A DNA stretch of 64,000 bases from the NCBI GenBank assembly GCA_002633005.1, contig NMRA01000021.1, forward strand, positions 1,552,896-1,616,895, given 5' to 3'. The notes under the pieces are model-generated. The model did no database searches. It was not told the origin of the DNA and was given only the letters and a program-made list of their open reading frames with translations. Made by a program: the position numbers and the translations under genes. Shown here piece after piece: positions 911 through 51,969 of the stretch (position 1 is its first letter; each line of letters starts with the position of its first letter). The stretch is from Phoronis australis (taxonomy: Eukaryota > Animalia > Phoronida).

Positions 911-1154
911 CAAAGCAACTACACATGGCTATCACAAAGCAACTACACATGGCTATCACAAAGCAACTACACATGGCTATCACAAAGGAACTACACATGG
1001 CTATCACAAAGCAACTACACATGGCTATCACAAAGCAACTACACATGGCTATCACAAAGCAACTACACATGGCTATCACAAAGCAACTACACATGGCTAT
1101 CACAAAGCAACTACACATGGCTATCACAAAGCAACTACACATGGCTATCACAAA
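911..1154. repeat. 24-bp minisatellite, ~10 near-perfect copies (ATCACAAAGCAACTACACATGGCT)
   Basis: Tandem unit read directly; one copy carries a C>G variant. It produces the spurious 8-aa-repeat ORFs in several frames. Confidence 0.95.
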
Positions 1155-14695: not shown

Positions 14696-14923
14696 TGTAT
14701 TGCTAAAACTGATGAAATATTACAATAAGGTACGTGTTGATCCCCAGCTGAGCTAACAATTCATTGTCAAATTCTAGCCAAGGTTCTTGATCCACAAATA
14801 CAACACACAACACAATGCTGTGGAGAGATGGTGCTCTCACATCACTTAGGATTAAAACATCGTGCTATCAATCCAGTGTGCATCACAAAAAAACTGATTT
14901 TGACTTATACAATGTGTCGTTAC

Positions 14924-15145
14924 AAAATTTGTCTCAAATTTTTCCTCAGACAAACTGGAGGTGATTTCAGAGCATTGAAGGAACTTACAGTTTGTTATTG
15001 CTTGAGACCAGGCTCCACAAAATGGCATGTCGCAGCACGCCATTTTATACACTGAGCCTGGTCTCAACAAATAACAAACTGTCCGATCTTTGCAAAACAA
15101 GAAATCATTTGCCATATGATTCAGGAAAAAGTTGAGACAAATTTT
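14924..15145. mobile_element. Foldback/palindromic MITE
   Basis: aaaatttgtctcaa...acagtttgttattgcttgagaccaggctc...aaaatggc pairs with gccatttt...gagcctggtctcaacaaataacaaactgt...ttgagacaaatttt around a ~12-nt loop. Confidence 0.7.
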
Positions 15146-16189
15146 AAAGCAGTGAGTGGTTCAAGTTGCGAGTTCTTTTCTTGGAGAGACTGGGAGATTA
15201 TAGCTGCCTTGTGTTATTGAAATGAATGATGAGGTTAAAACCAAACACTTATCGTAATAAGGTAACCAATGATAGAGAGACCATGCTTTTCTGGAAATGA
15301 ACAGAATAGATCGTTCGCAAGATAAGAGGATTCATTTTCGTTCCCCTTTAATTGATGTCCTGAGGTTTGTAAGAACTCGAGCTGGCTTTCCATGTGCAGA
15401 GCTGAAGACTATTATTTGTCACACTTTTCTATGGAACTAAGTTTTATTTTTACTTATGTTGGGGTTTTAATTAGGAAAAAAAATTTACGGTAAATATAAT
15501 CTAAAAAAATGACCGAGACTGATTCTGACCACCAATCAAATGATGATTATTAAGCAGGCAGATATTCAAGTCATTCTTCACTTTTTCTGAAGGTGGCACT
15601 GAATTCTTTTTCCAGTCTTGACAAACAATGAACGTGATGTGCAAACAGTGTTTAAGAACACCAAATTACCGGTATTTATTTCTCAGCCAGTAAGCAAAAC
15701 CCGATGGAATTTCACCCAGCACATCGTACTTTTCACCCCCTATCTCCCTACACTGGCCTTCATCGTACAAGATCACAGATGCAGTATAGTACAGTGAGTC
15801 TATCCGTAGCCTTCACTCGCGTGAGGGGAATGGTGGCTGTGCCTTCTGAGGGTTGAGGTGAAGATTAGAGAGCTCTATTAATTCTAACCAAGGAGGTCAC
15901 TGCACCTCATGTGCAGTGCCTCAAGCAGTCAAAACTAATGTTTTAATAGAATCATATAGTGATTTTAAGCTTCAGGGGAATGTTTTAATCATTGGAGAGA
16001 AATTTTGGGACCTGGTGAACAGAATTTCACGATTTTTTACATTTTTCAGAGTGGCTGTGGTCAATATCTGTTGCTGCTCGGGTAAATTCCAGGACACAAT
16101 GCTGATTGATAAGCTTCCAAGCACCCATGGCGTGACAGTGCACCCACAATCGACAGCGCACCCATGATCGACATCGCACCACAATTACC

Positions 16190-17345: not shown

Positions 17346-18548
17346 ACAAGCAGTCATCATCGAATCATCGAATCAAGGCAGTTCAGTTGTGAAGTGTCAG
17401 TATAATTCAGAAACTTAAAGAAGTTGAGTATTTACCGCACTCTTATCAACTAGTAGATGATAAAACAAGGCATTCAACCAGCGCTCAACATCCAATACAA
17501 TGATCGATTTCCTAACCTTGCTCTCAACTAAGTCTTTGCCGAGCCTAAACTTGATTGACCGGTATGTTTTGCTAGAAACAGGAAGTTGTAAGAGAACAAT
17601 TAAATTCGACGATGTCGTTTCCTAAACTTATTATCTATATTCTGAAGTAAAATACTTACCATAAAGCAAAATAAAAGTAAAATTTCACTTGTGACTATGA
17701 AAACGAAAGTTTTTAAAGATCTGGTCGTCGAAAAATATCTTTTTACCTATTATACTCTTTAGCGTTTGGAGAACACAAAAAGCAGTAAACAATGAAAAAT
17801 GATTGGAAGTGTTCGCTGTAGTTTTCATCAAAATTTTGTTAAAAGGCTCACTTTTGTTCGTTTTTTGTGTGATGTTACGAAACTACGTAGAGGCCGTCAA
17901 ATGCCTGCTGGAAAAATTGCTCTTTACGAAAACCCGTTACCTGAAGAAGGTCAGTGACAGTGAAATCTAGCCAGCCAGGCACCTCCGCTTTTAAACTTGG
18001 AAATAATCATCAGATAATGACCATCGTCTGTGCTGGCGCAAGTGGCACAGACAATGGAGATCTTATAGGAGCTTCATACACCGGAAGCTTTTCGGCGAAT
18101 TATGCCTCGCACTGACTAAAACATCAAAGTCACATTGTTATAAATTTGTTTTGTGCATAGATGGACACCTTAGCTAGGAGGTCGTCGATGTAGTCGGATA
18201 TAATGGACCCTAACTTACTTATTCCAAATAAATCCACTAAATGTGGGTCTGAATGAATGATTTTGATATCGTTGCATTCCTCAGACATCTGGCTATCCAT
18301 TCATTTCCACCTCACGACCCTCAATTACTCCGTTCCATAACTACGCTATTCCAAACTCTGTCCACTTTAGCCATGCGCATTGTGAAATTGACAGCCATTT
18401 CAGGGAACTTACTATATCTAGTGCCATCTATCGGCGATCTGCTACTACACATGCTGTTCCTTTTCATCAGTCAATGTCATTGGTCGATTTTGTCAATTAT
18501 TAATGTCATCGTTCGGGTCTCATGGACGACGATAACATGACGATGACA
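17346..18548. repeat. Copy 1 of a ~1.2-kb near-identical duplication (copy 2 at ~19038-20242) covering the divergent-promoter region and exon 1 of the dsRBD-RNase H gene
   Basis: Direct sequence identity with few SNPs and indels. The exon-1 copy at 17799-17949 encodes MIGSVRCSFHQ...PEE. Confidence 0.9.
17500..17800. promoter_or_regulatory. Probable bidirectional promoter / 5' non-coding exon region of PARP3 and the dsRBD-RNase H gene (duplicated at ~19180-19475)
   Basis: The PARP3 ATG exon is preceded by an acceptor (~14703-14711), so an upstream non-coding exon is needed. Minus-strand donors G|GTAAGT (17654-17660) and AG|GTTAGG (~17511-17518) and an ETS-like CAGGAAGT (~17579) lie 140-300 bp from the plus-strand ATG at 17799. 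TSS positions are not determinable. Confidence 0.45.
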
Positions 18549-18875
18549 TTATCATACTTTAACTTTGGCCCAAGGTTCATTGACACGGTCAAAACACTCT
18601 ACAACAAATCTTGTCTCTGTGTTCTCCAACATGGATTTTTCTCTGAATTTTTTGAAATGGGGAGAGGCTGTCGTCAAGGAGACCCCATTTCTCCTTACCT
18701 TTTTTATTATGTGTAGAATTATTGGGTAATTTAATTCGTCGGGATGGTGGCATCACTGGTGTCAGGATAGGTGTTTCTGAGTTTAAATTGATCCAGTACG
18801 CTGACGACACTTGTTTGATTTTGGACGGTTCTGAGTTATCTCTAAGATCATCTTTGAATTTAATTGACCAATTTG
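18549..18875 (+). mobile_element. L1/Tx1-type LINE reverse transcriptase fragment
   Basis: Translations FNFGPRFIDTVKTLY...GRGCRQGDPISPYLF and IQYADDTCLILDG. Contains an in-frame stop and ends at the N at 18876. Confidence 0.88.
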
Positions 18876-19037
18876 NGTTTGAATCAACGAATACTATATA
18901 TTTGTGAGAGTTAAATCAAGTCCTATTCAGATCATAACTTTGAAGTGGAATAATTGGGTGAGTAAGACAACAAGCCGGTTTTATGCTTAGGCGGACGACT
19001 ATAGGGTTTCGGAGTGTACAATCCACTACACTACAAT

Positions 19038-20242
19038 ACAAGCAGTCATCGACAGTTCAGTTGTGAAGTGTCAGTATAATTCAAAAACTTAAAGAAGTTG
19101 AGCATTTACCGTACTCTTATCAACTAGTAGATGTTAAAACAAGGCATTCAACCAGCGCTCAACATCCAATACAATGATCGATTTCCTAACCTTGCTCTCA
19201 ACCTCAGTCTTTGCCGAGCCTAAACTTGATTGACCGGTATGTTTTGCTAGAAACAGGAAGTTGTAATAGAACAATTATATTCGACGATGTCGTTTCCTAA
19301 ACTTATTATCTATATTCTGAAGTAAAATACTTACCATAAAGCAAAATAAAAGTAAAATTTCACTTGTGACAATGAAAACGAAAGTTTTTAAAGATCTGGT
19401 CGTCGAAAAATATCTTTTTACCTATTATACTCTTTAACGTTTGGAGAACACAAAAAGCAGTAAACAATGAAAAATGATTGGAACTGTTCGCTGTAGTTTT
19501 CATCAAAATTTTGTTAAAAGGCTCACTTTTGTTCGTTTTTTGTGTGATGTTACGAAACTACGTAGAGGCCGTCAAATGCCTGCTGGAAAAATTGCTCTTT
19601 ACGAAAACCCGTTACCTGAAGAAGGTCAGTGACAGTGAAATCTAGCCAGTCAGGCACCTTCGGCTTCGGCTTCGCTTTTAAAAATTAAATTTGGAACTAG
19701 ATAATGACCATCGTCTGTGCTGGCGCAAGTAGCACAGACAATGGAGATCTTATAGGAGCTTCATACGCCGGAAGCTTTTGGGCGAATTATGCCTCGCACT
19801 GACTAAAACATCAAAGTCACATTGTTATAAAATAAATTTGTTTTGTGCATAGATGGACACCTTGGCTTAGCTAGGAGGTCGTCGATGTAGTCAGATATGG
19901 ACCCTAACTTACTTATTCCAAATAAATCCACTAAATGTGGGTCTGAATGAATGATTTTGATATCGTTGCATTCCTCAGACATCTGGCTATCCATTCATTT
20001 CCACCTCACGACCCTCAATTACTCTGTTCTATAACTACGCTATTCCAAACTCTGTCCACTTTAGCCACGCGCATTGTGAAATCGGCAGCCATTTCAGGGA
20101 ACTTACTACATCTAGCGCCATCTATCGGTGATCTACTCCTACACGCGCTGTTCCTTTTCATCAGTCAATGTCATTGGTCGATTTTGTCAATTATTAATGT
20201 CATCGTACGCGTCTCATGGACGACGATAACATGACGATGACA
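19038..20242. repeat. Copy 2 of the ~1.2-kb duplication
   Basis: Near-identical to 17346-18548. Confidence 0.9.
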
Positions 20243-23200
20243 GATAAGATGGCGAGAGTGAGGATGACGAGAGCAGACATAACAATGATTAATAACGATG
20301 ACGTTAATAATTGACAAAATCGACCAATGACATTGTTGGAAAAAATGTTGGCTTTCAGCGCCATGAAATATTGTGTCACATATTGGCCAGATTCTTTTTT
20401 CGACGATTCTTCAATTAATCAAGGAAGAGAGAACTTTTTAGTTTTTAATGATATTAACTTTGTAACTTTGTTGCAAAGCTGTACAAATATATCTTCGTAA
20501 TTGTCTGGTTAAAATCTTGCACTAAATTGTGTCATTACATTTGTTCACTCTCGAAAATTATTTTAACTGTGAGCAGTAGTTTTTAGTGTGATTGAAGCAA
20601 TTTCAATGTAAAAGTAAAAAATGTGCAAATTGTATAAGTCAGCTGACCAGAATAAGTAATGCCATTATTATAACAACAACAATATGGCTATGGAGGTTTT
20701 TAGCAATATATTTTATTTAACTTTGTAAATTAAAGGGTCAAAGAAGAAAATTAATTATTGACATGAAAGTCTAATTTTGTTCCATTTTGTTCCTTTTTGT
20801 AGGTATATTTTCAGCTAAATGTTATTGTTGGAGATTAGTTTGTTTGCAAGGCAATTTCAATTCAAAGGAGGGAATGCTATGACATTGCCTTGGATCTTGA
20901 TTGGCTTATGTTTTTAACTCCAGAATGTGGTTAAAAAGTGAAATGAAATGCAGACTGCTGGACCAACCAAATTCATGTATGACATGTACTCACGTTTTTT
21001 CAGATGTATTCTACCATAATCGTAATTTTATTATGATTTCAACACCTGCTCTGGCACCGATCGTAGATTTGGGTCAACGTTTATCCTCAACTTCTCTCAA
21101 AAAATTCAATTTAGTTTTCTTCGTATTTCAATTTTCTACTCAGTCAATCATTTGCCAAGCTTTGTTGTCATATGTTTACATGTTTACCGCGTTAGCGTAA
21201 CAAATTTTTACATGAACGATGTGCTCTTTATGCGTATAACATTACTCTTAGTATGCGTATAACTTTACACTGTTTTCACGTATTCACTCAAAAGTATACA
21301 TTTCTCACACAGGATGCTTGCGTTAATGCAACCCCTGATTTTTTGCTCTTTAATTTGAGCAGACGTTAACCTGGATGAGTATGGTTTGCTTTAGTCTGAG
21401 GTTCTGCTCCATGTGCAGGGATATTCCTGGACTGCACCTTTGTGCCATTAAGGCATAAAATATATAGAGACGGAAGTACATTGCAGCAGTGTGCCTTCCA
21501 GACCCATCTTTTAAAACACAACACTCTTCAAAAAATGCAAGATTCTCGTCAACTTTTTGCCAGTCGAGTAATATGTGATTCTTGTCTTAATCGCCCTTGG
21601 TGTTTCTGTTTCATATGTTACCACTTCAATTGCACTAAGTCTGCTGGGCATAACTTTTTGAAAAAAGGCACACGATTATGATCAGGTGTGACCAAAGGGC
21701 ACAGGTTCAAACCTGGCCATGAATATCCCTGCAACTGACACTGCCTGCTGATTATAAGTGGTCCATGTACTTCATAGAAGTTTTAAGTTATCAGCATAAA
21801 ATATGTGTAATCATAGGTGCCAGAACTGTGTTATTTTAATTTTCAAACTTTGCTTACTTTCGTTCAAGGACTTTAGCACATCTATTCTTGATTTCCAGTT
21901 GAATACCTAAGAAAGAAATTTCCTCAACCCCAGCAGCTAGTTGATGAGGTCCTATCCTCAGTGGTGGCTGTGGACCCCACTGTCGTCCCACAGAAGACCA
22001 CTGTACCACTGATGCCATTTACACCTTGGGAAACATGGAAGGTAAGGAACTGCTGCATTCCTCTGGAATAATGCCTGATGTTGTCGGTTGTAACCCAAGT
22101 TGGTGATTTGGGTTTAGAACCAGAAAGTTGAATTTTGGGAGACAAAATGAGCATTCATGAAAATATGGGGCTCTACGCCCAATATAGTGTAGACTGTAAA
22201 ATTTCACTAGGGGAGGTGGAGGGGAGAGGTTGGAACCATCCAAACATGACTATTTAGAGGTATTAATTTTGAAAAGTAGAGCTTTCTGTTAAGAGTTTGC
22301 CAAAAGCTATAAATGCTTTTATACAGGTCAGCTTACACTCCAAGTGGCCCGTAAAGTTCAAGGTCGCTGGAAAGAGCAGTCGGGTTGAGCTGGCAGAAGA
22401 GAATGCGTACCTGTTGGCCTGTGCTATGCTGTCTGTGAGTCGTGATAAATATTTAGTGCATATATACTTACACGTAATTAGGAAGATTCGTTTGTGGCAC
22501 AGATGCATTGTGAACCCCTATCTCTAGCTATGACTGACATGTGCAGTGCTATGATTGAAATGGAATTTTCTCTAACAATTATTTCTTCAGTGCAATAAAT
22601 TGTGGAAAGATTTAGACACTTAATGCGCATTTAAGTCCACACAGGGCTGATTAGGTAAAGCAAACTTCAAATAAGAATAAATTGATATGGTAGCAGCCCT
22701 TCTTTAACATAGACTTCATTGAAAACACGACTATAAACTTTTTGTTTGAAAGCTTGATACAGGGTTGAAAAAAACACCTTTTCAGGTGGGCAGCTATGTA
22801 GCAAAACAACGAGAGACATAAACAGTCAAATTAAAACACTTACTAACTGCTATGTTTCAAGACTGCACGTCTCATCATCAGGCAATAAGTAGAATGAACA
22901 CATTATGAAGCAAAGTAAACTGTGAAATACATGTGACAGCGGGAAGAGGGGCATACAAGCAGAATTTGAATGCAACACACGATAGGAAGCCCGCAACCCT
23001 ATTGGAACAGAGCCTGTGTGCAGTACACACCTGCAAGCTGCTCATTCAACAGGTTTTTCGTGACTGATTAATAGCTATGTTATGTCTCTCGGTGTTTTGC
23101 TACATAGCTGCACACCTAAAGAAAGGAGATTGCTTTGACACTGCGAATGACTCTGTATAAAGCTTTCAAACGAGATTAGTCGTGTTTTCGTTGAAGAATT

Positions 23201-26200
23201 CTGTGAAATAAATGTACTGCATTCAGTCCAGGGTTATATCATGAGTTGTGTAATTATGAAAGTTAACTCGCCATATTAAAACACCACGTGAAGACTTCCA
23301 CCCCAAAACCTGAACCGAAACAAGAATTCTCAAAGATAGCGCTGCCCACTTTGATTCGGAAGTTTTAAGCAGGTATTCCCATAAAATGTTCATGCAAAAT
23401 TGAGACCCACTATGAACGAAAGTTGAACCTGGAGATTTTTGCATTTTGCAATTTTTGCGACTGCTTTCAACTGTAGGCTTAGGTTGAGGCGCTGGTGTCG
23501 TGAACATACAGTGTATTAGGCATCAACATTCATTTGTAAATTATGCGAAATTCAGCCAACAGACAACCACTTTGAATCAAACAATTAAAAATCAATGCAA
23601 TTCATTTTTGGATCCTCACCAAGAAGCACCTGTTCTTGCCAAGCCCAAAATTCGCTGCTGTGAAGTTATCATATTATTTAGGACCTTGGACTTGTTGACA
23701 GCAATGGCCAACCACTGGATTACAAGGAAACATTTTACGAGCTGCTAGAGAATGTGTCCCACAAGGCATTTACAATGCAGAAGATCAACGTGACGAGTAC
23801 TCGCTATACAGGTTTGTATAACATAGTGTTGTTGAACTGAAAGGTGGATTCAAGGGGTCCGGGCCTCACGGTGGACATGCCGCTAAAAGCTGCCGACAGG
23901 CTGCTTTCAAGAACTACTCAAACATTTTCCTGCAAGTTCATGGTTGCCCCCTAATGACATTGTAGACTTGTCAATGCATTAAACTTTTTAGTGCAATGTA
24001 CACATATAATTGAAAAATATTACCTCCCCCATACATATAAAGCAATGGTCCTATTTGGACAGATTAAGCATATTTGCTTGCGGTAATATCCAGAGCATTC
24101 AAATTGTACCTTAGGTGAAGCCGTTAAACCAATCATGAACATTTAAAAGGAACATTTTTGAAAAGTTGGGTGAGTTTACCTGACAATCCATTTGGTTAAC
24201 GACCTGGGAATTGTATTGATGGATGTAACATTGGTAGTATTAATTAAAAAGTCAAACAGGGTGTGGATAAAGTGCTGGTTGTGACGCAAGAAAATTGCAA
24301 GCTTTTTGGGTCATGGAGCTCTGATATTCACAAAGATATGGTGCTTCAAAGAGGGATTCTATAACCAAACTTGGGTATAATATTTTTAAAAATTAAGGAT
24401 GTGCGTTTAGCCGAATGTGGGCATTAACCGGCAGAAGATTACAATGAAACAAGGCTTGGAATTTTCCGCGGAAACACGGATTTCTGCTTTTTTCAAATGT
24501 TCCGTCCGCGTATTTTGTTATATTTCCGCGTAAAAAAATTGGATTTGATATAAAATTTCTGCGGCAAATTCCTTTCTTACCGTGGCGTTGCCGACGACTT
24601 TCACCTCAAAAAGCGGAAGTTGCACTTTATGTTTCGGAGGAATGTAAATTGTTAACATTGCTGGGGCATCTGAGATAGCGTGGTGGATTTTTCAATGGCG
24701 TCTCGTGTGATTGTAAACCGCGGTGACAAATACTACGACTCTGCAGCCAAAATTGTGTGGAGATGGGAGTTGACGGACGAGCTAAAAAGACGCAGACGCA
24801 CGCTTCTGGAGGTGGTACCGTTTTTTTTTAGTCCCCCCGATTTTTGTTGGCAAAAGGTCCACATCGACTATGTCGAGGCTGGGAAGTGCGCATGTTTTGG
24901 GCCGTAAAAATTTCCGCGTTTTTCGTCATTGGTCATTCCAAGCCCTGATGAAATTAGGCCTACATTGTAAATTTGTGCCTATCACATTTTTTGACTTGAA
25001 TGTTTCAACTGCTACTACCAGCTTCTTCACATAATATAAGGTCTGAAAAATCTCAAAAGTTTTTATCTTTCAGCTATTCAGAATCCATAGGCAATAAAAC
25101 AACATTCTCAGCCAGGACCATCAAAATTTTTTTGTTAAGCTGTGTTCACTTACACTGGACAACTGGGATAATTGTATTAACGATGAGCAGGGTGGACAAA
25201 GAACTGCTTTCACTGACCTTGCGTATTGATTTCAAAAGGCTTATTGTCTGGGTTGTATAATAATGGTTCGTAAAATTCTAAGCCAGAGTAATCATCACTA
25301 TGCAGACTAGTTAACCCCTCCTAACCCAACGTGGTAAATAGTTACCAAGAAATTGGGTTCATTCGTCCGATAATTTTTAATTTTTTAGTTTTTGTGTAAA
25401 TCCTTTGTTGAATTTAATGTCGATGTATTACGGTCTGTGTGTCATTTTGCAGGCATCAATGGTTGTCTATGGAAGACGGTGATTGACTGTACTTGGCCAT
25501 GTGACATTCAAGAAGTGGCTTATGGGAAAACTCAGGAGGAAAGTGAACGCAACGCCACCATGCACATCTGTGTCAAATTAAAGGTTACTGTTACTGTTCA
25601 TTTTCTCCATGCTTGTATTTTCTCTAAGAGTTAATTTTTTCAGTCAGTGCGAACTATGTAGGACCCTACAAAAATGCAGTCAAGTCACCCTTATATTGTG
25701 CAAGTTGCAGCTTGCAGCAGCAGAGCTTTCAACTGTTACTTGCAAGAAAAACATTAAACATTTTCAATTCTTGTGATCTGTTGTTGTTGGTTATGTAGGT
25801 AACTGAGTCTCTTCTCTCTGTTACAGTCTCTCAAGATCCTTGATAAAAGAAATCGGATCTGTAACCCAGTGGTGATGAGGCTATCCAACTTAACCCTAGA
25901 GTCAGATATTGATAATATCCAATGTGACTATGAGTTTTACGTTGACGCCTCTGTGAAAGGCTTTGGAGGATACCTTCTGACAATGAAAACTGAACTGCAT
26001 GAAAATCCTATTTTGTGGATAAAAGAACCATGGCCTGATAATGTTCTCCATTCCTACACCAGGCCGTTCATTCCGACGACTTTCCTCGAGTTTTACAGCA
26101 TTGTGGCTACTGTGTACACATGGAAACGAAAATTTATGAATAAGAACGTCTTATGCTGGTGTGACAATCAAACTGCCGTCGACATTGTGAACAAGGGTCT

Positions 26201-26471
26201 ATTCATGTCAGCGCCAGCGAAGCGGAACAAGTATTTCAAACTCTTCCAGTTACTCAGAGATACGTGCGTCAAGTCTAACATCACGCTTGTTGCAAGGCAC
26301 GTGAGCAGAATTGAAAATGTTGCAGCAGACTCTTTAAGCAGATTCGACGTGGAGGCGTTCCGTGCAATGTACCCTAATTCTATGAATAAGGCAACAAAGA
26401 CTAAGAAGCTGCTGTTCTTGTCACGGTTAATTCCAAAATCACCAAATGATGACACTGGTAAAGATTTATAA
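19474..26471 (+). CDS. Novel chimeric protein: putative mitochondrial presequence + 2 DHX30-N-type dsRNA-binding domains + DIRS/Ngaro-type RNase H (about 435 aa, 6 exons)
   Basis: GT-AG exons with matching phases: 19474-19624, 21899-22041, 22327-22434, 23682-23811, 25453-25583, 25827-26471 (1308 nt, open frame). Product: MIGTVRCSFHQNFVKRLTFVRFLCDVTKLRRGRQMPAG...EYLRKKFPQPQQLVDEVL...WKVSLHSKWPVKFKVAGKSSRVELAEENAYLLACAMLSDLGLVDSNGQPL...WKTVIDCTWPCDIQEVAYGKTQEESERNATMHICVKLKSLKILDKRNRI...YVDASVKGFGG...FLEFYSI...WCDNQTAV...NVAADSLSRF. AATAAA at 26473-26478. Exon 1 is the least certain; exons 2-6 are well supported. Confidence 0.8.
20166..20335. mobile_element. Small MITE / hairpin with 41-bp inverted arms
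   Basis: 20166-20206 is the reverse complement of 20295-20335 with one mismatch. The left arm is also present at ~18472-18512, where the element is cut by the LINE fragment. Confidence 0.7.
22714..23196. mobile_element. Inverted-repeat element, possibly a Penelope-like remnant with inverted pseudo-LTRs, in intron 3 of the chimeric gene
   Basis: ~130-bp imperfect inverted arms (ggtgggcagctatgtagcaaaacaacgagagacataa vs ttatgtctctcggtgttttgctacatagctgcacacc). Hammerhead-like motif on the minus strand at ~22845-22887. Confidence 0.55.
24450..24947. mobile_element. hAT-like MITE with 13-bp TIRs and 6-bp TSD (ATGAAA)
   Basis: atgaaa[caaggcttggaat...attccaagccctg]atgaaa. The empty site is seen in the paralogous unit at ~47678-47695. 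Confidence 0.85.
25827..26471 (+). CDS. Terminal exon of the chimeric gene encoding a DIRS1/Ngaro-like RNase HI domain
   Basis: Strong acceptor ctcttctctctgttacag. Motifs DAS-GFGG, W..., LE..., CDN..AV and H...N.AAD.LSR with D-E-D-D intact. The C-terminal LSRF...FR...P is typical of Ngaro-type RNase H. Confidence 0.85.
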   Translation, partial: SLKILDKRNRICNPVVMRLSNLTLESDIDNIQCDYEFYVDASVKGFGGYLLTMKTELHENPILWIKEPWPDNVLHSYTRPFIPTTFLEFYSIVATVYTWKRKFMNKNVLCWCDNQTAVDIVNKGLFMSAPAKRNKYFKLFQLLRDTCVKSNITLVARHVSRIENVAADSLSRFDVEAFRAMYPNSMNKATKTKKLLFLSRLIPKSPNDDTGKDL

Positions 26472-28460
26472 CAATAAAGTACTAAACTAAGATTTTGTTG
26501 TAGAATGTCGTTCCTGTTACATTTTGAGTAGCACCAATTCAGTTGAATGACTTACCAAGCACTTTGTAGACAATCATGTTTTTCCGAGATGATTTTAGAG
26601 TTATAAACCGTGCAATGACTCACAATGCTCATAAAATAAAAATCGAAACATTTCTTTTTAAAAATACACTTGTCTGTATTGTCTCACTTCTTTTTCAGTG
26701 TTCTCAAATCTCACTGGTCGTATTACAATTGAATCCGACTTTCAGTGGTTATTTGCTTAAATATTTCATTTCCGTTTTTCCTCATCTCATGTTTGTCTCG
26801 TCATTCAAACTGTGCACCTAAGTTTGAATGAGGCCATTTGGTATTCAGAAACACCCTCACCCAATGCACAGGTTTCCCACGAGTCATTGACATTGTTAAA
26901 CTGAGTTGTGATTCGTTGATTGGTAGCCAATCCTATTCTGGTATTTTTCATATTTTGGAATTTTCTCTGTATTGTACCTGTAACTATCCTGTCATCCATT
27001 CCTTGAATAAAGCTGGACAATGGTGGATGCTTTGCTGTCAAAACATGTCGCTATATTTTACACCCAGTAGATGTCTTTATTTAAACTTTACTTGTGTTTG
27101 TCAGCCTGAGTGCGAGATCATTCACCTACACTGTATTAAATGGTTTGAAATGCTGCACAGGTTCCAGTATGGCACATCTGCCTAACTTCGATATCGTGTT
27201 TCCTTTAAACTTCCCCGAAATATGATCACATCTCACACACAAAGCTTCAAACTACAAATGATAATTCAGACTGGTATCCTTTCAATTGGAGGTTGTATTA
27301 TACTTTCTAGTCTTTCAGGGAGTTGTTATTCGTCAATAAATTGCTACCTAGACCAACTACAGTGACAGTTCACGTCCTCACTGCCTTGAAACGCAATTAA
27401 AATCCTACAAAGCTGAAATGTACATGGCCAATTAGGGAGGATGTTACTTTGCATCGACAACTTCAGTTCGATGTACTACATTGCTTCCATAGCTCCAAAA
27501 TGACCTGCAGATTAAATCTACGATAAATGCATGGTCTCGAGTAATAACGAACTGTCATTTTTTTGTTAGGGCGAAACTTCAGACTTCGACTCCAACTTCG
27601 GATTAAGTTGAAAAAAGATAAAATTTAGTGGATAACATCAAATGTTATTTTGTAATTTGACAGTGTATTTATTGTGCTAAGCCAGCATCTAGAATTGTGA
27701 ACGGACAAATTTCAAAGATTTACTCAAATGTTGCTCATACAATTGAGGTCGTGTATATAAAAACACAGCTTCTTGAGTTGCAATTCCGCAGTAGTTTTCA
27801 AGGTAAAATGGGCCACTTTGGAAATCGCACTTCGCACTTTCTCGAAGCTGCGACAACTTGCCTCCAGTGTCGATTAGTTTCATATAGGGGCAAGGCAAAG
27901 AGGTAACGTAACATTGGATCCTAATCTTCGACTAAAATGCTTTTTAATCACAACAAAGTTTTAATTAAACTTACTCTGACAAGACGTTAGTCCAAGTACT
28001 GTGGCAGGGTCTAATGGAGTTCTGTCGAAGTCCAGTTTAGTTTGAAAACTACTGTACGTACGAATAGGTACAAAAGCGCGAATGTGGTTACCAAATATTG
28101 GTGTAGATTGTGGCTATCAAATGTTACCTCTGTGTTAATTATAAACATAAATAACGACACAATAATGTTTATGTTATGTTGCATTTCAATATTTCTATAT
28201 TATACAAGGAAGCAGTCCTGCGCATGTAAGACTTGCCATCATGTTTATTACTTTGTAAAAGCGTAGATCATGCATAGCACAGGCACAGGAGTTTCAAGAT
28301 GACTCGTAACCATAAGAAACACATTATTTTATTATAGTGAATTTTGTGATTGATGATCGAGGAGCAGATAAACTCAAGGTTCTGAAACAGCATGAAACAG
28401 AAAGACAATAGGATAGAGTAAAATACATATTAGTTTGTGTGTAAAGATAACATTAGTTAA

Positions 28461-31400
28461 AACTAGAAAGAGTACTGTCAATGCGTGACAACTATGGACT
28501 CTGCGCGTGTGTATTAAACGAATTGTTATTGGAAGCTACTGAAAGCAACCCGTTAACACATTTGAAAAGGAATTCTTTAAAGTTGTAGGAAAAATAACAT
28601 GCAAATATTTTGATGACCTTTCCACTAATTGACCTCTTTCGGTGCATTATGAGCCTGGATGAGGGAATAATTGTAAATTCCATTAAAAGTGAGGTTAATG
28701 CTAAGAATCACAGATGTTTTACTTTAAGCACTTTATAATACAACATGAATGAATTGGTCAAACTTTCAGAAGAAAAATGCACCTAATGACCCCATGGGGG
28801 CACCAAATGACCTGATACAAAAACTCAATCACATTTACTAACCAGATATGTAATTCTGAGTCTCTAGCTCAAAATTTTAGTTTGCACTCAATGACCTTTG
28901 ACCTATTTTCTCTGATTGAATGACTCTATTGCTTAGTAAAGTAGGGTATTTCATTGGCATGTAGGTTTACACCAATGTGAAGGAATTGAAAAGAATTCCT
29001 TGAAAAATGTAGAAGAAATAAAATTTTCAAAAGTAGATGACCTTTGCACTAATTCACCCTATCCAGTGCATTACAAGCCCTTTTAGTAGAACTATTGCAA
29101 AGTCCGTGAAAAGTATATTTAATGTTGAAAATCACAGTTGTCTAACGGTTGGCACATCAGACTACTTGGTGAATGAAAAGGACAAATTTTCAGAAGCAAA
29201 ATGTACCTAATGACCCCATGGTTGTACTAAATAACCTAAAACATCGTATTTCAAATTGAATTAGATGTAACAATCAGACTTGTGAATTTGAAGTGTCTCG
29301 CTCAAAATTTTAGTTTGCACTCAATGACCTTTGACCTATTTTTCAGATTGGTTAGGCCTATTGCGTGGTAAAGTAGGGTGTTCATTGGCATGTTGAATTA
29401 CTTAAGTATCCTGAAATTGAAAATAATTCCTTGAAAAACGTGAGATATAACACTTTGAATGTTAGATGACCTTTGCACTGATTGACCCTATCAGAATACT
29501 TGGTGAATGAAACGGTCAAATTTTAAGAAGAAAGATGCACCTAATGACCCCATGTTTGCACTAAATGACTTGAAACTTTGGATTCCAAATTGAATAACCT
29601 GTGCCAATCAGACCTGTGAATTTGAAGTGTCTAGCTCAAAATTTTAGTTTGCACCTATTGACCTTTGACCTGTTTAACCTGATTGGATGACCCAAATACA
29701 AAGTAATTTTTTAAATTGCCTTATTGACTTATACCTGTGTACCGAATTTGAAAAGAGTAGCTTTTAAAATAAAGAAGGAGTAGCATTTTGAAAATTACAT
29801 GACCTTTGCACAAAATTACCTCTTCCGGTGCATTATGGAATATGATTATATAACGAATCGAAATTCGTGTACTGTCAAAACTCATATGCTGTATTTCAAG
29901 ACTGTACCTACACCCAATTTGGAGTTATTGGGCCTCAAAGTTGGTCGGAAGAAGAATAAGAAGAATAAGAACTAGAAAGATTATTGTCACGGCGTGACAA
30001 TAACGGACTCTGCGCGTGCGTATTACTGGAATTATTATGGGAAGTTACTGACAGCAACCCGTTTACAAATACGAAAAGGAGTTCTTTAAAATTGTAGGAG
30101 AAATTACATTTTAATTTTTTGATGACCTTTCAACTAATTGACCTCTTCCGGTGCATTATGAGACCCGACGAGGGAGTAATTGTTAACTCGATTAAAAATG
30201 TGGTTAATGCTAAAAATCACTGACGTTTTACTTTAAGCACTTCAGAATACAAGACGAATGAATTGGTCAAACTTTCAGAAGAAAAATGCACCTAATGACC
30301 TCATGGGTGCACAAAATGAACTGAAAATTTAGAATTCAAACTCAACCGCATTTACTAAACAGATTCGTAATTTTGAAGTCTCTAGCTCAAAATTTTAGTT
30401 TGCACTCAATGACCTTTTACCTATTTCTTCTGATTGGTTAGGCCTATTTTGAAGAAAAGTAGGGTATTCAATTGGCATGTTGACTTACACCAGTGTGCTG
30501 AAATTGAAAAGAATTCCTTGAAAAACGTAAGAGATATAACATTTTGAACGTTACATGACCTTTGCACTAATTGACCCTATCCGGTGCATTGTAAGCGTCC
30601 TTAAGAGAATTATTGCAAAGCCAATAAAAGTGTGTTTAATGCTGAGAATCAAAGTTGTCTAACGGTTGACACATCAGAATACTTGCTGATTGAAAAGGTC
30701 AAATTTTCAGAAGAAAAATGCACCTAATGACCCCATGTTTGCACTAAATGACCTGAAACTTTGGATTCCGAATTGAATTAGCTGTGCCAATCAGACCTGT
30801 GAATTTGAAGTGTTTAGCTCAAAATTTTAGTTTGCATCTCATGACCTTTGACTTATTTAACCTGATTGGTTGACCCGATTACTTAGAAAAGTAATTTTTT
30901 AAATTGCCTTCTTGACTTATACATGTGCACCGAATTTCAAAATGATATCTTTTTAACTGAAGAAGTATCAATTTGAAAATTATATGACCTTTGCACCAAA
31001 CGACCTCTTCCGGTGCAATATGGAACATGATCATATAACGAATCAAAATTTATGTACTGTCAAATAATCACATGCAGAATTTAAAGAATATACCTGCACC
31101 CATTTTGGAGTTATTAAGCCCCGAAGTTGGTCAGAAGAAGAATAAGAATAAGAACTAGAAAGATTATTGTCATGGCGTGACAATAATGGACTGTGCGCGT
31201 GCATATTTCTGGAATTGTTTTGGGAAGTTACTGACAGCAACCCGTTTACCAATATGAAAAGGAATTCTTTAATATTGTAGAAGAAATTACATGATAATAT
31301 TTTGATGACCTTTCCACTAATTGACCTCTTCCGGTGCATTACGAACCCCGATGAGGAAATAATTGTAAACTCGACTTAAAGTGTGGTTAATGCTAAGAAT

Positions 31401-34544: not shown

Positions 34545-35362
34545 TCACTTTACTAATGTTACAGTCAAAGCCAGAAATAAGCAATAGTCCACCATCACGT
34601 TCTACCACAATAATCTGGCTATCATGACATGTGATACCACCCCAACCACCTTCATCATCTGACCCTTGCTGTTGTACCTCACCACACCACAAATATCATA
34701 AGTAACAAATATATCACCCTTTTCAGTACAAGTTACACCAAAAGGGTACTTCAGGTTATGTTGACCATGATCCACCTCAAACAACCACTAGATCTGTCAA
34801 ACACTTTAATTTGATGACTATTGTAACTTGTAGTAATCAACCAGACATCATTCACTGCCAGGCCATAAAACGGAGTGCTTCCCACATTGTAGTTGTGCAC
34901 CAGTGTCACTTCCTGTCTTATATCAGGCTGACGACATCTCTCTGACACCAATGATGCTACAAGCTTTTTCTCATGCTCTGTCAACGTCTTACTTCTCAAA
35001 TCAGGAATTTCCAAAGTGGACGGATCCTGTCTGAACACTGGTTTGATGATATCTTTTTCCAGCTTCTGAATGTCCAGGATCTCAAGTCGCGCTTTAATGT
35101 CCTGAAATTGTTGCAGTTTTTCAACATCCTGGGCTGAGTCGAGGGTTTTGACAATATTTCAAAATACTACTTACGTTCACTTTTCTCAAATCAGCTTTAT
35201 TGTACGCCATCTCAACTTGTTTGCGGGCTTTTGCAATCTCCACTTTCAGTTCCTTAATCGACTGATTCATCTTTGTTTTAATTTCAACCAAAATGTATTC
35301 TTTAAATGTGTTGTACACTTGGTGTATTTCGTTCATCAGCCGTTCTTCTTCTTCAACAAGTC
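34545..35362 (-). pseudogene. TRIM-NHL pseudogene fragment (coiled coil and first NHL blades)
   Basis: Frameshifted ORFs LVEEEERLMNEIHQVY..., FRQDPSTLEIPDLR...IKVFDRSSG and FEVDHGQHNLKYPFGVTCT. RING/B-box and C-terminal NHL are deleted. Closest to the 51970-53898 copy. Confidence 0.9.
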
Positions 35363-35575
35363 GTGTAAGATACTGACTACAGGGGTCATCCTTTTTTTGT
35401 TCTGTACAATCGAACAAGTTGGGCTCAACCGGAAAATGCCGAAATGGGGTGCCTGAAAACCCACTGCTAGCTTTTTATCGAGTTCCCTTCCCCAATAGTT
35501 TTCATCAAAGTAAACTGTACAACATTGGAACTAGGTAAAGCTTCGACGCCCAAAACCGTGAGTAAGTATCCATTC

Positions 35576-39142: not shown

Positions 39143-39789
39143 TGTCTGTAATGAAATTTGGAAAAATAAAATATAACCAAGATGTTGATTTGCATGCTTT
39201 TTCAATACATTTCATTCATATTGCGCAGCATTGTAAATGATGGACTTCAAGCACCAGTGTAATGACTGACCAATCCATGTGACATTATATCAGATTTCAT
39301 TACACTACCAATAAGTAATGTTCTGAATGGCTAAAACACCATCAGACTGTTTTTAAAAGTTATGTAAGAGCCTAGAGAAGCGCCCAAATTCAGCACAATA
39401 TCAGATTCATAACTTTCAGATACTACACTTTAGGACATTTTCAAACACAACACTGTTAGCAGTTGAGAAGTTATCAAAAATAGCCCTTTTATGATTTTCA
39501 GTAACAAATTTATGAAAAACAACATTATTTGCGGTGACTTTAGTTTAGTTCAAACCATAAGTACCAGAACAACCCTAAATCAAAAGAAAGAATACAAGAA
39601 CAGATGAACCTTTTTGATTTAAAAAATCTGTTTTGAGAAGAATATACACTGCTTAAAATAATTACATGGAGGGGTAAAAGCTGAAACCACAATAAAGCAA
39701 ACAAGAATATGGCTTTTCTTGATTCTGGTAACCTTAGCCACTCTGTCAGTGACCTAATTACTCAAAACCGTTATTTCTCCAACTGCTAA

Positions 39790-46902: not shown

Positions 46903-49241
46903 GGATTTTGTACGAGTTGACAGCAATGACCAACCACTGGATTACAAGGAGACATTTTACCATATCTGTTAGAAAATGTGTCACAAAAGGCTTTTACAAT
47001 GCAGAAGATAAACGTGACGAGTACTCGCTATGCAGGTGTGTATAAACTAATGTTGTTAAACTGAATTAAGGTGGATTTAGGTGGTCCGGGCCTCAATGTG
47101 GACGTGACGAAAAGCCCCGTCGTGCTGCTTTCAGGACCTACTCAAACATTTCCCTGCAAGTTCATGGATGCCCCCTTGTGACATTGTTGGCCTATCAATG
47201 CCTTGAACTTTTCAGTGCAAAATACACCGACGACATAATATAATGAAACAATATTACCCCTCATAAGTACAAAGCAATGGCCCTATTTGGACAGACTAAA
47301 CATATTTGCTTGCGGTAATGTCCAGAGCGTTCAAACTATACCTTAAAATTAGGTGAAGCTGTTAAACCAATCATGAACATTTGAAAGCAAAATTCTTGTA
47401 ACGTTGGTGAGTTTACCTGACAATTCATGTGGGTTAACGACCTGGGAATTGCGCTGATGGATGTAACATTGCAAGTATTAAATAAAAGTCAAACAGGGTG
47501 TGGATAAAGTGGTGTTTGTGACACAAGTAAATTGCAAGCTTTTTGGGTCATGGAGCTCTGATATTCACAAAGATATGGTGCTTCTAAATGGGGTTCTATA
47601 ACCAAACTTGGGCATAACATTTTAAAAAGTTATAGATTAGCGTTTACCTGAATGTGGCCATTAACCGGCAGAAAAGTACAATGTAATTAGGCCTACATTG
47701 TATATTAGTGCCTATCATAATAGTTGAGTCCTTTAACTGTTATATCGGCTTCTTTACATATTTTGAAGTCTGTAAATCCCAAAAGAATTGATCATCCCGG
47801 TCTCAGATTTTCAGAGTCCATAAGGGGTAATAAAAGTTATTCTCGGACAGGACAACGAAAGCTTTATGTCAAGCTGTGTTTACTTACACTGGCCGATCGA
47901 CTGGGATATGTGTATTCACGACGAGCAGGGTTGACAAAGTACTGCTGTCACTGACCTTGCATATCAATTCCAAAAGGCTTATTGTATGTGAATGACACCC
48001 ACGATTTATAATGGTTCGCAAGATTCGAAGCCACTATGAGAAATATTCTGATCCACTATTCAGACTAGGTAACCCCTCCTAGTGAAAAATGGTAAATAAT
48101 TACCAATGAATCGGATTCATTCGTGCCATTGTTACCTCCAGTTTTTGTGTAAATCTTTTGTTGAAGTTAATGTCGATGTATTACGGTCTGTACGTAATTT
48201 TGCAGGCATCAACGGTTGTCTATGGAAGACGGTGATTGACTGTACTTGGCCATGTGACATTCAAGAAGTGGCTTATGGGAAGACTCGGGAAGAAAGTGAA
48301 CGTAGCGCCACTATGCACATCTGTGTCAACTTAAAGGTTACGGTTACTGGTTATTTTCTCCATACTTGTATTTTCTATCAAGAGTTAGTTTTTTTTGTCA
48401 ATGCGAACTATGTAGGTCCCTAAAAAATGTAGTCAAGTCGTTTGATCCAACACCACCTTTATGTTGTGCAACAGTTGCAGCTTGCAGCAGCAAAACTTTC
48501 AACTGTTACTTGCAAGAAAAACATTAAAAATTTTCAATTCTTGTGGACACCCTTGTTGTTAGTATTGAAAGTAACTGAGTCTCTTCTCTCTGTTACAGTC
48601 TCTCAAGATCCTCGATAAAGAAATCGGATCTGTAACCCAGTGGTGATGAGACTATCCAACTTAACCCTAGAATCAGATATTGATAATATCCAATGTGACT
48701 ATGAGTTTTACGTTGACGCCTCTGTGAAAGGCTTTGGAGGATACCTTCTGACAATGAAAACTGAACTGCATGAAAATCCTATTTTGTGGATAAAAGAACC
48801 ATGGCCTGATAATGTTCTTTATTCCTACACCAGGCCGTTCATTCCGACGACTTTCCTCGAGTTCTACAGCATTTTGGCTACTGTGTACACGTGAAAAGGA
48901 AAAATTATGAATAAGAACATCTTATGCTGGTGTGACAATCAAACTGCCGTCGACATTGTGAACAAGGGTCTATTCATGTCAGCGCCAGCGAAGCTTAACA
49001 AGTATTTCAAACTCTTCCAGTTACTCAGAGGTACGTGCGTCAAGTCTAACATCACGCTTGTTGCAAGGCACGTGATCAGAATTGAAAACGTTGCAGCAGA
49101 CTCATTGAGCAGATTCGACGTGGAGGCATTCCGTGCAATGTACCCCAATGCTATGTATAAGGCAACAAAGACTAAGAAGCTGCTGTTCTTGTCACGGTTG
49201 ATTCCGAAATCACCAAGTGATGACATTGGTTAAGATTTATA
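46903..49241 (+). pseudogene. 5'-truncated pseudogene of the dsRBD-RNase H gene (exons 4-6 only)
   Basis: The exon-4 copy has lost its acceptor AG and is frameshifted. The exon-5 copy is at ~48206-48336. The exon-6 copy has a 1-nt deletion near 48615 and TGG>TGA at 48892-48894. Exons 1-3 were not found upstream. Confidence 0.88.
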
Positions 49242-51969
49242 ACAAAAAACTACTAAACTAAGTTTTTTATTGTAGAATGTCGTTTCTGTTACATTCTGAG
49301 TAGCACCAGTTCAGTTGAATGACTTACCAAGCGTTTTGTAGACAATCATGTTTTTCCGAGATGATTCTAGAGTTATAGAACGTGCAATAACTTACAAGGC
49401 TCATAAAATAAAAATCAAAACATTTTTTTTTTAAAAATACACTTGTCTGTATTGTCTCATTTCTTTTTCAGTGTTCTCAAATCTCACTGGTCGTATTACA
49501 ATTGAATCCGACTTCCAGTGGTTATTTGCTTAAATATTTCATTTCCGTTTTTCCTCATCTCATATTTGTCTCATCATTCAAAGTGTGCACCTAAGTTTGA
49601 ATGAAGCCATTTGGTATTCAGAAACTCCCTAACCCAATGCACAGGTTTCCCACGAGTCATTGACACTGTTACACACACTGAGTTGTGATTCGTTGATTGC
49701 TAGCCAATCCTGTTCCGGTATTTTGCATGTTTTGGAATTTTCTCTGTATTGTACCTGTAGCTATCCTGTCATTCCCTGAATAAAGCTGGACAATGGTGGA
49801 TGCTTTGCTGTCAAAACATGTCACTATATTTTACACTAGTTGATGTCTTTATTTAAACTTTACTTGTGTTTGTCAGTGCGAGATCATTCACCTACACTGT
49901 ATTAAATAGTTTGAAATCGTGCACAGGTTCCAGTATGTCACATCTGCCTAACTTCGATATCGTGTTTCTTTTAAAATGCACCGAAACATGATAACATCTC
50001 ACACACAAAGCTTCAAACTACAAATGACAATTCAGACTGACATCCTTTCAACTGGAGGTTGTATTATAGTTTCTTAATCTTCCTGGGAGTTGTTATTCAT
50101 CATTAAATTGCTACATAGGCCAACTACTGTGACAGTTCACGCCTTGCCGCCTTGAAACGCAATTAAAATCCTTCAAAGCTGAAATGTACAAGGCTAATTA
50201 GGGCAGATGTTACAGATGACAACTTTAGTTAGATGTACTACATTGCTTCCATAGCTCAAAATGAATCTTCAATAAATGCATGGTCTCGAGTAGGCCTAAT
50301 AACGAACTGTTATTTGTTGCCGAAACTTCAGACTTCGACTCCGAGTTGGGATTAAGTTAAAACAAATTGATCAAGATTAGTGGATAAAATCAAATGTCAC
50401 GTTGTGATTTGACAATAAGTTTATTGTACTTACCCAGAATCTACAATTATGAACAGACAAAATTCCACGTCCTACTTAAGTGTTGCTCATACAATTGAGG
50501 CCAGGTGTGTAAAAACACGTCAACTTCTTGAGTTACAATTCCCGAGTAGTTTTCCAGGTAAACTGGAAAATTTTGGAATTTGACAAAGCTTTGACACACA
50601 AAACCGTGACTAAACATTTCTTTTCCACAAGAATAGTTATCGGTAAATGTCAATAAAATTTCAGCTTGCCCCGGTGTTGTACTTCGTACTTTCTCGAAGT
50701 TGCGCCAACTTTCCACCAGTGTCGATTAATTTCACAAACATATAGGGGGAAGGCAAAGTAACTTCACATTGGATTCTAATCTTCCACTAAAATGCTTTTT
50801 AATCACAACAAAGTTTTAATTAAACTTACTCTGACAAGAACTTCTTCCAAATGTGGCAGGTTCTAATGGAGTTCTTTCGAAGTCCAGTTTATTTTGGAAA
50901 CTACTGTACATACGAATGGGTACACATGCGCGGATGTGGTTACCAAATATTGGTGTAAATTGTGGCAATAAAATCTTACCTTTAGGTCAATTATGAACGT
51001 AAAGAACGAAACAATATTGTTTATGTTACATTTCTATATTTCTAAATTATACAAGCAAGCAGTCTTTCGCATAATGTGACATTTAAGACTCACCATCGTC
51101 TTTATTACTTAGTAAAAGCATTGATTGTGCATAGTACATGCACACCAATTTCAAAATGACCCAACCACATTAAAATACATGATAGAGATGTGTAAAGATA
51201 ACATTAGTTAAAACTAAGAGTGCAGCGTGAATAAATCGAATTAACTGGACCTGAAACAAATACTGCGCATGGCACGTTTAAGCAATATAGCTATCAATCT
51301 CTCATTCAAAAGCCAGCAGCAGACTGTCTATTCTGTGTATAGTTCTGTACAGCTGTAACCCTCGGAAGCACAAGATTAATGACACTTTACTGGCCGTTAT
51401 CACTTAAAAAGCATTAAGTTCTTACTAAGCTGCCAATATTGAATTCTTAACAAAAAAACGTTTCGGGGTTTGAAAGCATTACAAGCTGAATTGTTGAACC
51501 ATCGACAGAGTCAAAGGCAATGCAGACATGCGCTATATTGGAATTTTAGAGTAAGCCAAGGCGAATAAAGTTTGATAACTTTTCTAGGGTCGCTAATTGT
51601 TTCCATGTTCCTTTTGGTATTGGAAATAAAGTTATTGTTACTGTAAGGAAAGTATGAGAAACATTTCATGAGAGTGAACTGCCTAGATCCCAGGTACACC
51701 ATTTACATATTAGATAAATTATTTTTACAGCCATTCATGAAACCGTGCGTTTCATAGTTTTTGCCGAATATGGACATAATTAAGGTTGCACATTTCCACG
51801 ACTTCAGGCTACTTAGACACGTGTTTTAGTTGATTAAAATTAAACTTGAATGCTCAATGTACATGACCTCAGATCTAACAGCCTCAAGCTGAGTCAAAAT
51901 ATAGTTGCAACATAACACAGACCCATAAAGCAATGTTCAATTTGTTCAATGTGCTTATCAGAGAACAGT

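Follow-up and report, generated by a model that had tools for sequence, protein, structure and literature searches.

A spliced Phoronis australis gene joining a DHX30-like region to an RNase H of probable retrotransposon origin, with relatives in annelids and molluscs

A 64,000-nt window of Phoronis australis DNA (contig NMRA01000021.1, positions 1,552,896 to 1,616,895, + strand) contains what is almost certainly a real spliced, expressed and conserved host gene. Overall the gene is best explained, by a modest lean, as the 5' part of DHX30 joined to an Ngaro-like RNase H and encoding a mitochondrial nuclease. Six exons form a single frame of 435 codons plus a stop, and all introns are GT..AG (Table 1). 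This in-phase structure had been proposed in a preliminary description and is borne out by the coordinates and by junction reads. Exon 1 features a short out-of-frame upstream ATG at 19467 and another in-frame ATG at 19576. The intron at the 3' end of exon 5 is located at a position homologous to that of the exon 3 intron. The polyadenylation signal said to follow the stop is present, and more AATAAA motifs are located downstream at 26635 and 27006.

Table 1. Features of the gene and of its duplicates in window coordinates
Feature	Position	Strand	Remarks
Duplicate exon 1	17787..17949	+	ATG 17799; one base differs; 5' read pile at 17787
Exon 1	19462..19624	+	5' end ~19462, ATG 19474; Arg-rich, acid-poor presequence-like N-terminus
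Exon 2	21899..22041	+	Repeat 1 dsRBD fold: helix 1, strand 1
Exon 3	22327..22434	+	Repeat 1: strands 2-3, helix 2; 3' intron position conserved family-wide
Exon 4	23682..23811	+	Repeat 1 end, repeat 2 start
Exon 5	25453..25583	+	Repeat 2: strands 2-3, helix 2; 3' intron conserved
Exon 6 coding part	25827..26471	+	Repeat 2 tail, linker, Ngaro-like RNase H, basic tail, stop
AATAAA polyadenylation signal	26473..26478	+	RNA read depth drops past signal
Broken partial duplicate, exons 4-6 with introns	46904..49242	+	Exon 4 frameshifted; exon 6 frameshifted and with stops

Stranded RNA reads span the five junctions, in order, 91/92/92/90/77 times in run X6, 69/83/118/79/72 times in run X7 and 5/9/10/10/2 times in run X8, which has a depth about tenfold below that of X6 and X7. 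The strand is that expected of a + gene in every case in 3/3 raw-read RNA runs, and the check on splicing proposed earlier returned five of five junctions, including exon 5 to exon 6. A 1,555-nt contig carrying the last four joints was found in run X1 from a separate study. This run had been labelled DNA by guess, however, it contains cDNA because its PARP contig is likewise spliced, which also rules out a processed DNA retrocopy behind the X1 joints. Run X5 gave a single short spliced contig only. The exon variants in the RNA reads, among 40 listed of 334 rows, include at least 11 synonymous and at least 5 non-synonymous changes vs 285:1020 sites, and the synonymous excess on the 15 fixed variants of the listed rows has a p of 3e-5. 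Several of the variants match bases of the broken downstream copy. Nothing in the window or in these reads marks the RNase H exon as one of many near-identical dispersed transposable-element copies with a dN/dS near 1, which the preliminary description had named as the contrary case.

Two duplicates that were absent from that description are located in the window. The duplicate of exon 1 is part of a 1.2-kb tandem duplicate (94%, with N between the copies), and unambiguous RNA reads favour the upstream exon 1 with depths of 29 vs 7 and 22 vs 5. This upstream copy is likely a second haplotype or a short tandem duplicate. The broken copy, ~23 kb downstream, lies in a duplicated segment that also contains a TRIM-NHL gene, and the deletion in its exon 6 is carried by no RNA read.

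Homologous proteins, annotated as "uncharacterized" in databases, form a family of annelids and molluscs, which is therefore older than had been supposed and no local novelty. A search of 1.84 billion proteins found 32 at E<=1e-30, and the named members come from 14 species of annelids and molluscs, most of which have a single gene of the family. A further word-indexed search yielded no protein beyond those found before. The exon 6 residues D261, E309, D334, N385 and D389 are invariant in 19/19 full-length aligned members at an overall identity of 23-39%. The gene tree largely parallels the species tree, with support for siboglinids (100/100), Hygrophila (97/97), heterobranchs (100/100) and unionids plus heterodonts (98/98). 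Two intron positions are common to the family members. The intron signature, a Val from GT at +5 past an invariant Cys, is found in 18/20 matches that cover repeat 1 only, the remaining 2 being spliced, and at the end of repeat 2 it is found in 9/9 unspliced records, from annelid-like to Biomphalaria-like. Some members feature an additional intron inside the RNase H domain. Literature searches turned up no description of this architecture, in agreement with the preliminary description.

The N-terminal region had been described as two DHX30-type repeats. The claim stands for repeat 1, for which a DHX30 domain (PDB 2DB2, KIAA0890) is the sole significant PDB match with E values of 3e-9, 5e-9 and 7e-8; for repeat 2 the DHX30 match is weak (E 0.14). 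Repeat 1 aligns with 2DB2 over ~90 residues, which include a WP motif and a helix-2 Cys followed by a GLL motif. AF2 models feature two dsRBD folds, with a mean pLDDT of 56 for the full-length model. Pfam searches found no dsRBD match on single exons and nothing relevant on 19 repeat-1 fragments, and an ESM Atlas query with the Lamellibrachia N-terminus gave no usable match. Unlike DHX30, the family lacks a helicase core: no helicase Pfam family was found in 15 members and no DExH helicase motifs are located near the gene, which agrees with the proposal of a DHX30-derived N-terminus without the helicase. The region-3 lysine pair, KKxAK, that defines type A RNA-binding dsRBDs in the accounts of PMC11120146 and PMC5716075 is retained by 2DB2 and is present in 0/19 members in either repeat. 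The earlier term "nucleic-acid-binding module" is therefore not upheld, and the absence of the pair makes the dsRBD folds look like protein-docking domains. Other basic positions are conserved in these folds: K98 is basic in 17/19 members, K219 in 17/19 and K221 in 19/19. The earlier suggestion that exon shuffling made the join where exon 5 meets exon 6 has to be revised as well. The first codons of exon 6 still encode the tail of the second dsRBD helix, which puts the fusion point within that exon, away from the splice site.

The C-terminal domain is modelled by AF2 as an RNase H fold with a pLDDT of 86, and the D-E-D-D site reported as intact is indeed present (D261, E309, D334 and D389). 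His379 was considered as a counterpart to the catalytic His of the E. coli enzyme and was rejected; by inspection it is located in strand 5 and varies H/Y/W/A. A phmmer search of the PDB with exon 6 by itself gave 0 matches and Pfam RT_RNaseH matches the window domain with an E of 0.04 only. The nearest RNase H domains outside the family are found in RT-RH/tyrosine-recombinase retrotransposon proteins without methyltransferase (MT), which are Ngaro-like. RVT_1 was found in 11 and a phage integrase in 1 of 44 matches scanned, and 15/19 inspected element matches end no more than ~45 aa past the RNase H domain, with the MT family in none. Ngaro is described as being without MT in PMC3266345. The assignment of the relatives to Ngaro rather than to DIRS1/PAT would follow from this absence of MT, with Ngaro known by description. 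A profile of 63 non-family matches, an element set picked by similarity to the family, gives 121 bits for the window domain vs 5.5 for E. coli RNase HI and 1.9 for the Gypsy RNase H of the window, and this supports the suspected kinship to tyrosine-recombinase retrotransposons. On average, the window domain is 31% identical to those 63 domains of elements, compared with 18% to E. coli RNase HI, and it features the element-type helix after the last Asp that closes the frame in Ngaro-type Pol. A retrotransposon origin of the RNase H is thus held with high confidence.

There are some discrepancies regarding the RNase H tree. When two long-branch outgroups (E. coli RNase HI and the window Gypsy RNase H) were included, E. 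coli RNase HI was placed inside the family; without outgroups the family and the elements merely split in an unrooted tree (SH-aLRT 97), so that the phylogeny proposed earlier separates the two groups and leaves the rooting unsupported. The placement could be read as a sign that the gene is a diverged paralogue of cellular RNase H1 whose retrotransposon likeness is due to convergence or reverse capture, as could the mean identity to E. coli of 22% for the family vs 19% for the elements. This reading is very improbable, since the E. coli placement is on a 2.4-change branch, the window domain is closer to the elements in identity and in its C-terminal helix, and the hybrid-binding domain Pfam family has no match at E<=0.1 in 15/15 members. 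The protein does resemble eukaryotic RNase H1 in having an N-terminal accessory module and a C-terminal type-1-fold RNase H with D-E-D-D, and the putative mitochondrial targeting would be a further likeness. However, its accessory module consists of two dsRBD folds instead of a hybrid-binding domain, and it has a short, retroelement-type catalytic domain in which the loop holding the E. coli catalytic His is shortened. We infer an origin independent from RNase H1.

The remainder of a retrotransposon is missing from the window. In a tblastn search with 13 retrotransposon proteins, neither their RT nor their recombinase portions matched the window at E<=1e-3; the sole matches, to exon 6 and its duplicate, came from the RNase H portion. 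Terminal repeats of more than 23 nt are absent from 24900-28500, and self-BLAST of the window found none around exon 6, consistent with what had been claimed from inspection. The second copy of exons 4-6 might suggest a spliced mobile element that has captured DHX30 exons, which would not be a host gene. This is scarcely credible, as this copy has introns and was duplicated as a segment along with the neighbouring TRIM-NHL gene, RT, recombinase and terminal repeats are lacking, and the introns and the species-like tree are conserved across two phyla. Additionally, in the genomic-looking run X4 the exon 6 bins have a word depth of 8-13, as do their unique neighbours, vs 400-6,500 for repeats, although these depths give no true copy number. 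The family thus differs from Ngaro-type Pol (RT-RNase H, order DIRS) in lacking RT, gag, recombinase and terminal repeats, in being spliced, vertically inherited and fused to a DHX30-type region, and in having gained a basic tail.

This tail is family-specific, with 4.8 K/R in 17 aa (n=19) vs 1.1 in the element rows that have a tail (53/63). At the other end, the first 30 aa are presequence-like in 10/16 members with an extension vs 3 expected, by a crude charge rule applied to related sequences; the rule is unmet in 6/16, and 3 further members have no extension. The extensions of heterobranchs are 170-250 aa long. The composition points to a probable mitochondrial localisation. If the extension were instead no presequence and the basic tail a nuclear signal, the protein could serve defence in the cytosol or nucleus by destroying retrotransposon RNA:cDNA intermediates or R-loops in the nucleus. 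The transposon ancestry, the lysine-rich tail, the in-frame ATG after the extension, the lower depth of X8 and a nuclear R-loop role of human DHX30, as outlined in bioRxiv 10.64898/2026.10.25.761626, are in its favour. Such a role is nonetheless quite unlikely given the presequence-like composition, and one gene in most species, a species-like tree and a synonymous excess are unlike fast-evolving defence genes.

Judged from its sequence, the protein is very probably an active nuclease. RNA:DNA hybrids are cut by retroelement RNases H and are the main substrate that we think probable here. It is unlikely, though the gene and its origin would be the same, that the enzyme acts on double-stranded or structured RNA, such as mitochondrial transcripts or rRNA precursors, bound by a non-canonical surface of the dsRBD folds and cut by the RNase H fold. 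The presence of two such folds and their conserved basic positions are consistent with this, but the lysine pair is missing throughout and the known specificity of retroelement RNases H argues against it. In the fold comparison the first rank goes to Sulfolobus tokodaii RNase HI, reported in PMC9719913 as the sole RNase H that cuts dsRNA; the match is at the level of the fold only, with 17% identity and a very narrow lead over other short RNases H. The dsRBDs of DHX30 are required for ribosome binding according to PMC10723405, which also fits an RNA substrate.

For the preferred hybrid-cutting nuclease, a DHX30 5' part would have been duplicated and its last exon joined in frame to the 3' end of an Ngaro-like pol before the annelid-mollusc split, with the RT, recombinase and helicase lost. 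Targeting to mitochondria would be due to the presequence. The two dsRBD folds, without the RNA-binding lysines, would dock on a partner protein or RNP rather than grip a duplex, in parallel to the DHX30 domains on ribosomes. The lysine-rich tail may substitute for the substrate grip that was once given by the RT domain in the element, and the D-E-D-D site would do the cutting.

Most described domesticated retroelement genes are from vertebrates; they stem from gag, protease or integrase and have often lost catalysis. NYNRIN, GIN1, PEG10 and ARC in vertebrates and Imagin in crustaceans likewise keep a mobile-element domain as an intron-bearing host gene; these are traced in PMC3670739 and PMC12863088 to gag, protease or integrase of Metaviridae, retroviruses or Ginger, whereas the present family keeps a DIRS-order RNase H with its active site across two phyla.

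Annelids and molluscs split more than 530 million years ago. The chances are evenly balanced that the family is an undescribed third cellular RNase H of annelids and molluscs, more than half a billion years old, with a DIRS-order nuclease and a DHX30 front, acting in mitochondria on hybrids or dsRNA in parallel to RNase H1. If active, it would be a cellular RNase H additional to H1 and H2 in a large clade of animals, among them Aplysia, Biomphalaria and farmed bivalves. If the proposed origin is true, Ngaro-like elements predate the annelid-mollusc split, the family would reveal how a retroelement RNase H without its RT turned self-sufficient, and a core genome-maintenance enzyme would have been convergently re-invented from a part of a parasite.

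The six exons of the gene at 19474..26471 (+), which fuses two DHX30-like dsRBD folds to an RNase H, join into 1,308 nt with a single open frame of 435 residues and GT..AG at 5/5 introns, as the preliminary description had it. This splicing is borne out by stranded raw reads, which cross all five joints in three RNA runs of one study (about one fifth of each run), with counts for joints 1 to 5 of 91, 92, 92, 90 and 77 in X6, 69, 83, 118, 79 and 72 in X7, and 5, 9, 10, 10 and 2 in X8. The last four joints are also found in a 1,555-nt contig of X1, a run of a separate study whose DNA label is a guess and which contains cDNA, since a spliced PARP contig is present in it too. The read depth of the exon 6 bin is 168, 142 and 16 in X6, X7 and X8, versus less than 4 in the bins of the neighbouring PARP gene, which lies head to head with the fusion gene. 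Seven molecules terminate at the 5′ end at 19462, and the polyA signal noted after the stop is AATAAA at 26473. A short, out-of-frame ATG at 19467 lies five bases past the 5′ end, upstream of the main ATG at 19474, and a second in-frame ATG at 19576 follows the presequence-like part. With the upstream ATG and this second in-frame one, the gene could yield two isoforms, as RNase H1 does.

Two duplicated parts of the gene were missed in the preliminary description. Exon 1 is present in two copies, with an N at 18876 between them, and their coding parts differ by one base. The upstream base occurs in all reads (103/103, 66/66 and 6/6), and with both copies offered, unambiguous reads shift to the upstream copy; our guess is that this duplication is a haplotype join. 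A LINE-type fragment ends at the N. Exons 4-6 are found again with their introns, and this copy is broken: both exon 4 and exon 6 are frameshifted, and exon 6 also contains stops. A deletion that marks the copy is absent from RNA reads (0/130 and 0/106) and present in one contig of the genomic-looking run X4. The TRIM-NHL genes sit in tandem segmental duplications with this partial copy; a dispersed transposon copy was considered and rejected, because the introns are kept and a TRIM-NHL gene was copied along. The element in intron 4 is SINE- or MITE-like and is abundant in RNA reads (mostly one strand) and DNA contigs.

Features accompanying the fusion gene in the window
Feature	Position	Strand	Details
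Tandem array	880-1154		24-bp unit
Spliced PARP gene	7296-15704	-	WGR and PARP_reg domains; transcript reaches 15704
Exon 1 duplication	17379-18548, repeated at 19053-20242		94%
LINE-type reverse transcriptase fragment	18589-18875		between exon 1 copies
High-copy interspersed element	24453-24949		sharp ends; in intron 4
Complex nested tandem repeat	28461-32337		units ~430 bp and 1.2-1.7 kb, 70-88% alike
Third TRIM-NHL gene	34545-35474	-	broken, fragments
Two intronless TRIM-NHL genes	37214-39211, 51970-53955	-	RING, B-box, NHL
LINE-type reverse transcriptase fragment	44222-44656		
Copy of exons 4-6	46904-49242		in segmental duplication
Two adjoining Gypsy-type retrotransposon copies	57765-64000	+	frameshifted, ~90% alike; protease, RT, RNase H

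Homologous proteins are found in annelids and molluscs. The exon 6 query found a Lamellibrachia satsuma protein (43% identity), which as a query led to Ridgeia piscesae and a 432-aa protein. When 1.84 billion representatives were searched with a profile, 32 matches reached E<=1e-30; the cutoff of E<=1e-3 was passed by 1,767, of which 150 were listed. The named ones of 24 proteins looked up belong to 14 species, namely two siboglinid annelids and, among molluscs, two Patella, Potamilus, Sinanodonta, Mercenaria, Dreissena, Pinctada, two Biomphalaria, Bulinus, Lymnaea and Aplysia; their database names are hypothetical, uncharacterized or that of a single domain. The intact D-E-D-D described for the RNase H extends to the family, as D261, E309, D334, N385 and D389 are invariant in 19 full-length rows, a count that omits near-duplicates, a truncated Biomphalaria model and the Ridgeia model, which has no first half of the RNase H. 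In a tree of 23 rows the groups with starred support are siboglinids, Patella, unionids plus heterodonts, Hygrophila and heterobranchs; Pinctada is misplaced, and the window protein joins the annelid side weakly (82/43). The heterobranch snail members P0026, P0031, P0032, P0035, P0036, P0039 and P0040 have N-terminal extensions of 170-250 aa, a long insert inside the second repeat and mostly Trp for the strand 5 RNase H His, with D-E-D-D kept. Introns 3 and 5, at homologous points of the two repeats, are shared among family members, as indicated by a Val (GT) signature in genomic open frames: 18 of 20 matches to repeat 1 only have it five residues past the invariant Cys, at the intron 3 position (the other two are spliced), and 9/9 unspliced records have it after repeat 2 too, at intron 5. 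Some members gained an extra intron within the RNase H. Among the exon variants in RNA reads that were listed (40 rows out of 334), 11 are synonymous and 5 non-synonymous; relative to 285:1020 sites this is an excess of synonymous variants, which is indicative only.

The exon 6 model has an RNase H fold (pLDDT 86) whose closest counterparts are Ty3 and the short RNases HI of archaea, and the best matches outside the family are retrotransposon proteins. Among 44 matches scanned, 11 have RVT_1 and one has a recombinase after the RNase H; 15 of 19 inspected matches stop soon after the RNase H with no methyltransferase, the layout described for Ngaro in PMC3266345. The proposed origin from a tyrosine-recombinase retrotransposon is supported by similarity: the window domain shares on average 31% of its residues with 63 element domains, compared with 18% for E. 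coli RNase HI and 16% for a Gypsy RNase H, and an element-only profile scores 121, 5.5 and 1.9 bits for the window domain, E. coli RNase HI and Gypsy RNase H. However, the outgroup tree argues against it, for there the long branch of E. coli RNase HI arises within the family. Without outgroups the family forms one side of a branch (SH-aLRT 97, unrooted), so the element-to-host direction is proposed from similarity and the elements' much wider spread. As had been stated, no RT, recombinase or terminal repeats accompany the RNase H: the RT and recombinase parts of 13 retrotransposon proteins have no match in the 64-kb window at E<=1e-3, and 24900-28500 holds no terminal repeats above 23 nt.

The DHX30-type assignment stands for repeat 1 and is weak for repeat 2. 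The only significant PDB sequence match is 2DB2, the dsRBD of KIAA0890, which we take to be DHX30 (E 4e-5 for one protein; 3e-9, 5e-9 and 7e-8 for three profiles); for repeat 2 it is the top match at E 0.14. The AF2 model of the orthologue P0004 (mean pLDDT 56; 60-83 over most of the repeats) contains two domains of alpha-beta-beta-beta-alpha topology, which match MLE, Loqs, TRBP and 2DB2. According to PMC11120146 and PMC5716075, type A dsRBDs require a region 3 lysine pair, and type B dsRBDs without it bind proteins. The pair is present in 2DB2, whereas it occurs in 0/19 family rows in either repeat, which speaks against the N-terminus as a nucleic-acid-binding module; other basic positions of the repeats are conserved. 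A dsRNA nuclease is a serious rival reading, though an unlikely one. Two reports describe the DHX30 dsRBDs as needed for ribosome association (PMC10723405) and for DHX9 binding (bioRxiv 10.64898/2026.10.25.761626).

Because repeat 2 ends only within exon 6, the fusion lies inside an exon and not at the exon 5/6 border, as exon shuffling would have it. In the simplest origin, the RNase H would have been inserted into a duplicate of the DHX30 5′ part. The basic tail holds 4.8 K/R per 17 residues in the family versus 1.1 in elements (53 of 63 rows with a scorable tail) and is an addition of the family. N-terminal extensions of at least 30 aa occur in 16/19 members, and 10 of the 16 pass a crude presequence rule, with 3.0 expected; acidic residues per 30 are 1.3 versus 3.2, and Arg 2.6 versus 1.3. 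A nuclear or cytosolic defence factor is a second serious rival, slightly less probable than the dsRNA nuclease. Mitochondrial pools of DHX30 and RNase H1 are described in bioRxiv 10.64898/2026.10.25.761626, PMC9719913 and PMC7657459.

The open literature, searched also by six gene identifiers and with subscription journals and Repbase reports outside its scope, holds no description of the family. The gene is real and ancient, and it is a case of transposon domestication, undescribed as far as the open literature goes; its protein is, on balance, predicted to be a mitochondrial hybrid-cutting nuclease docked by its dsRBD folds.
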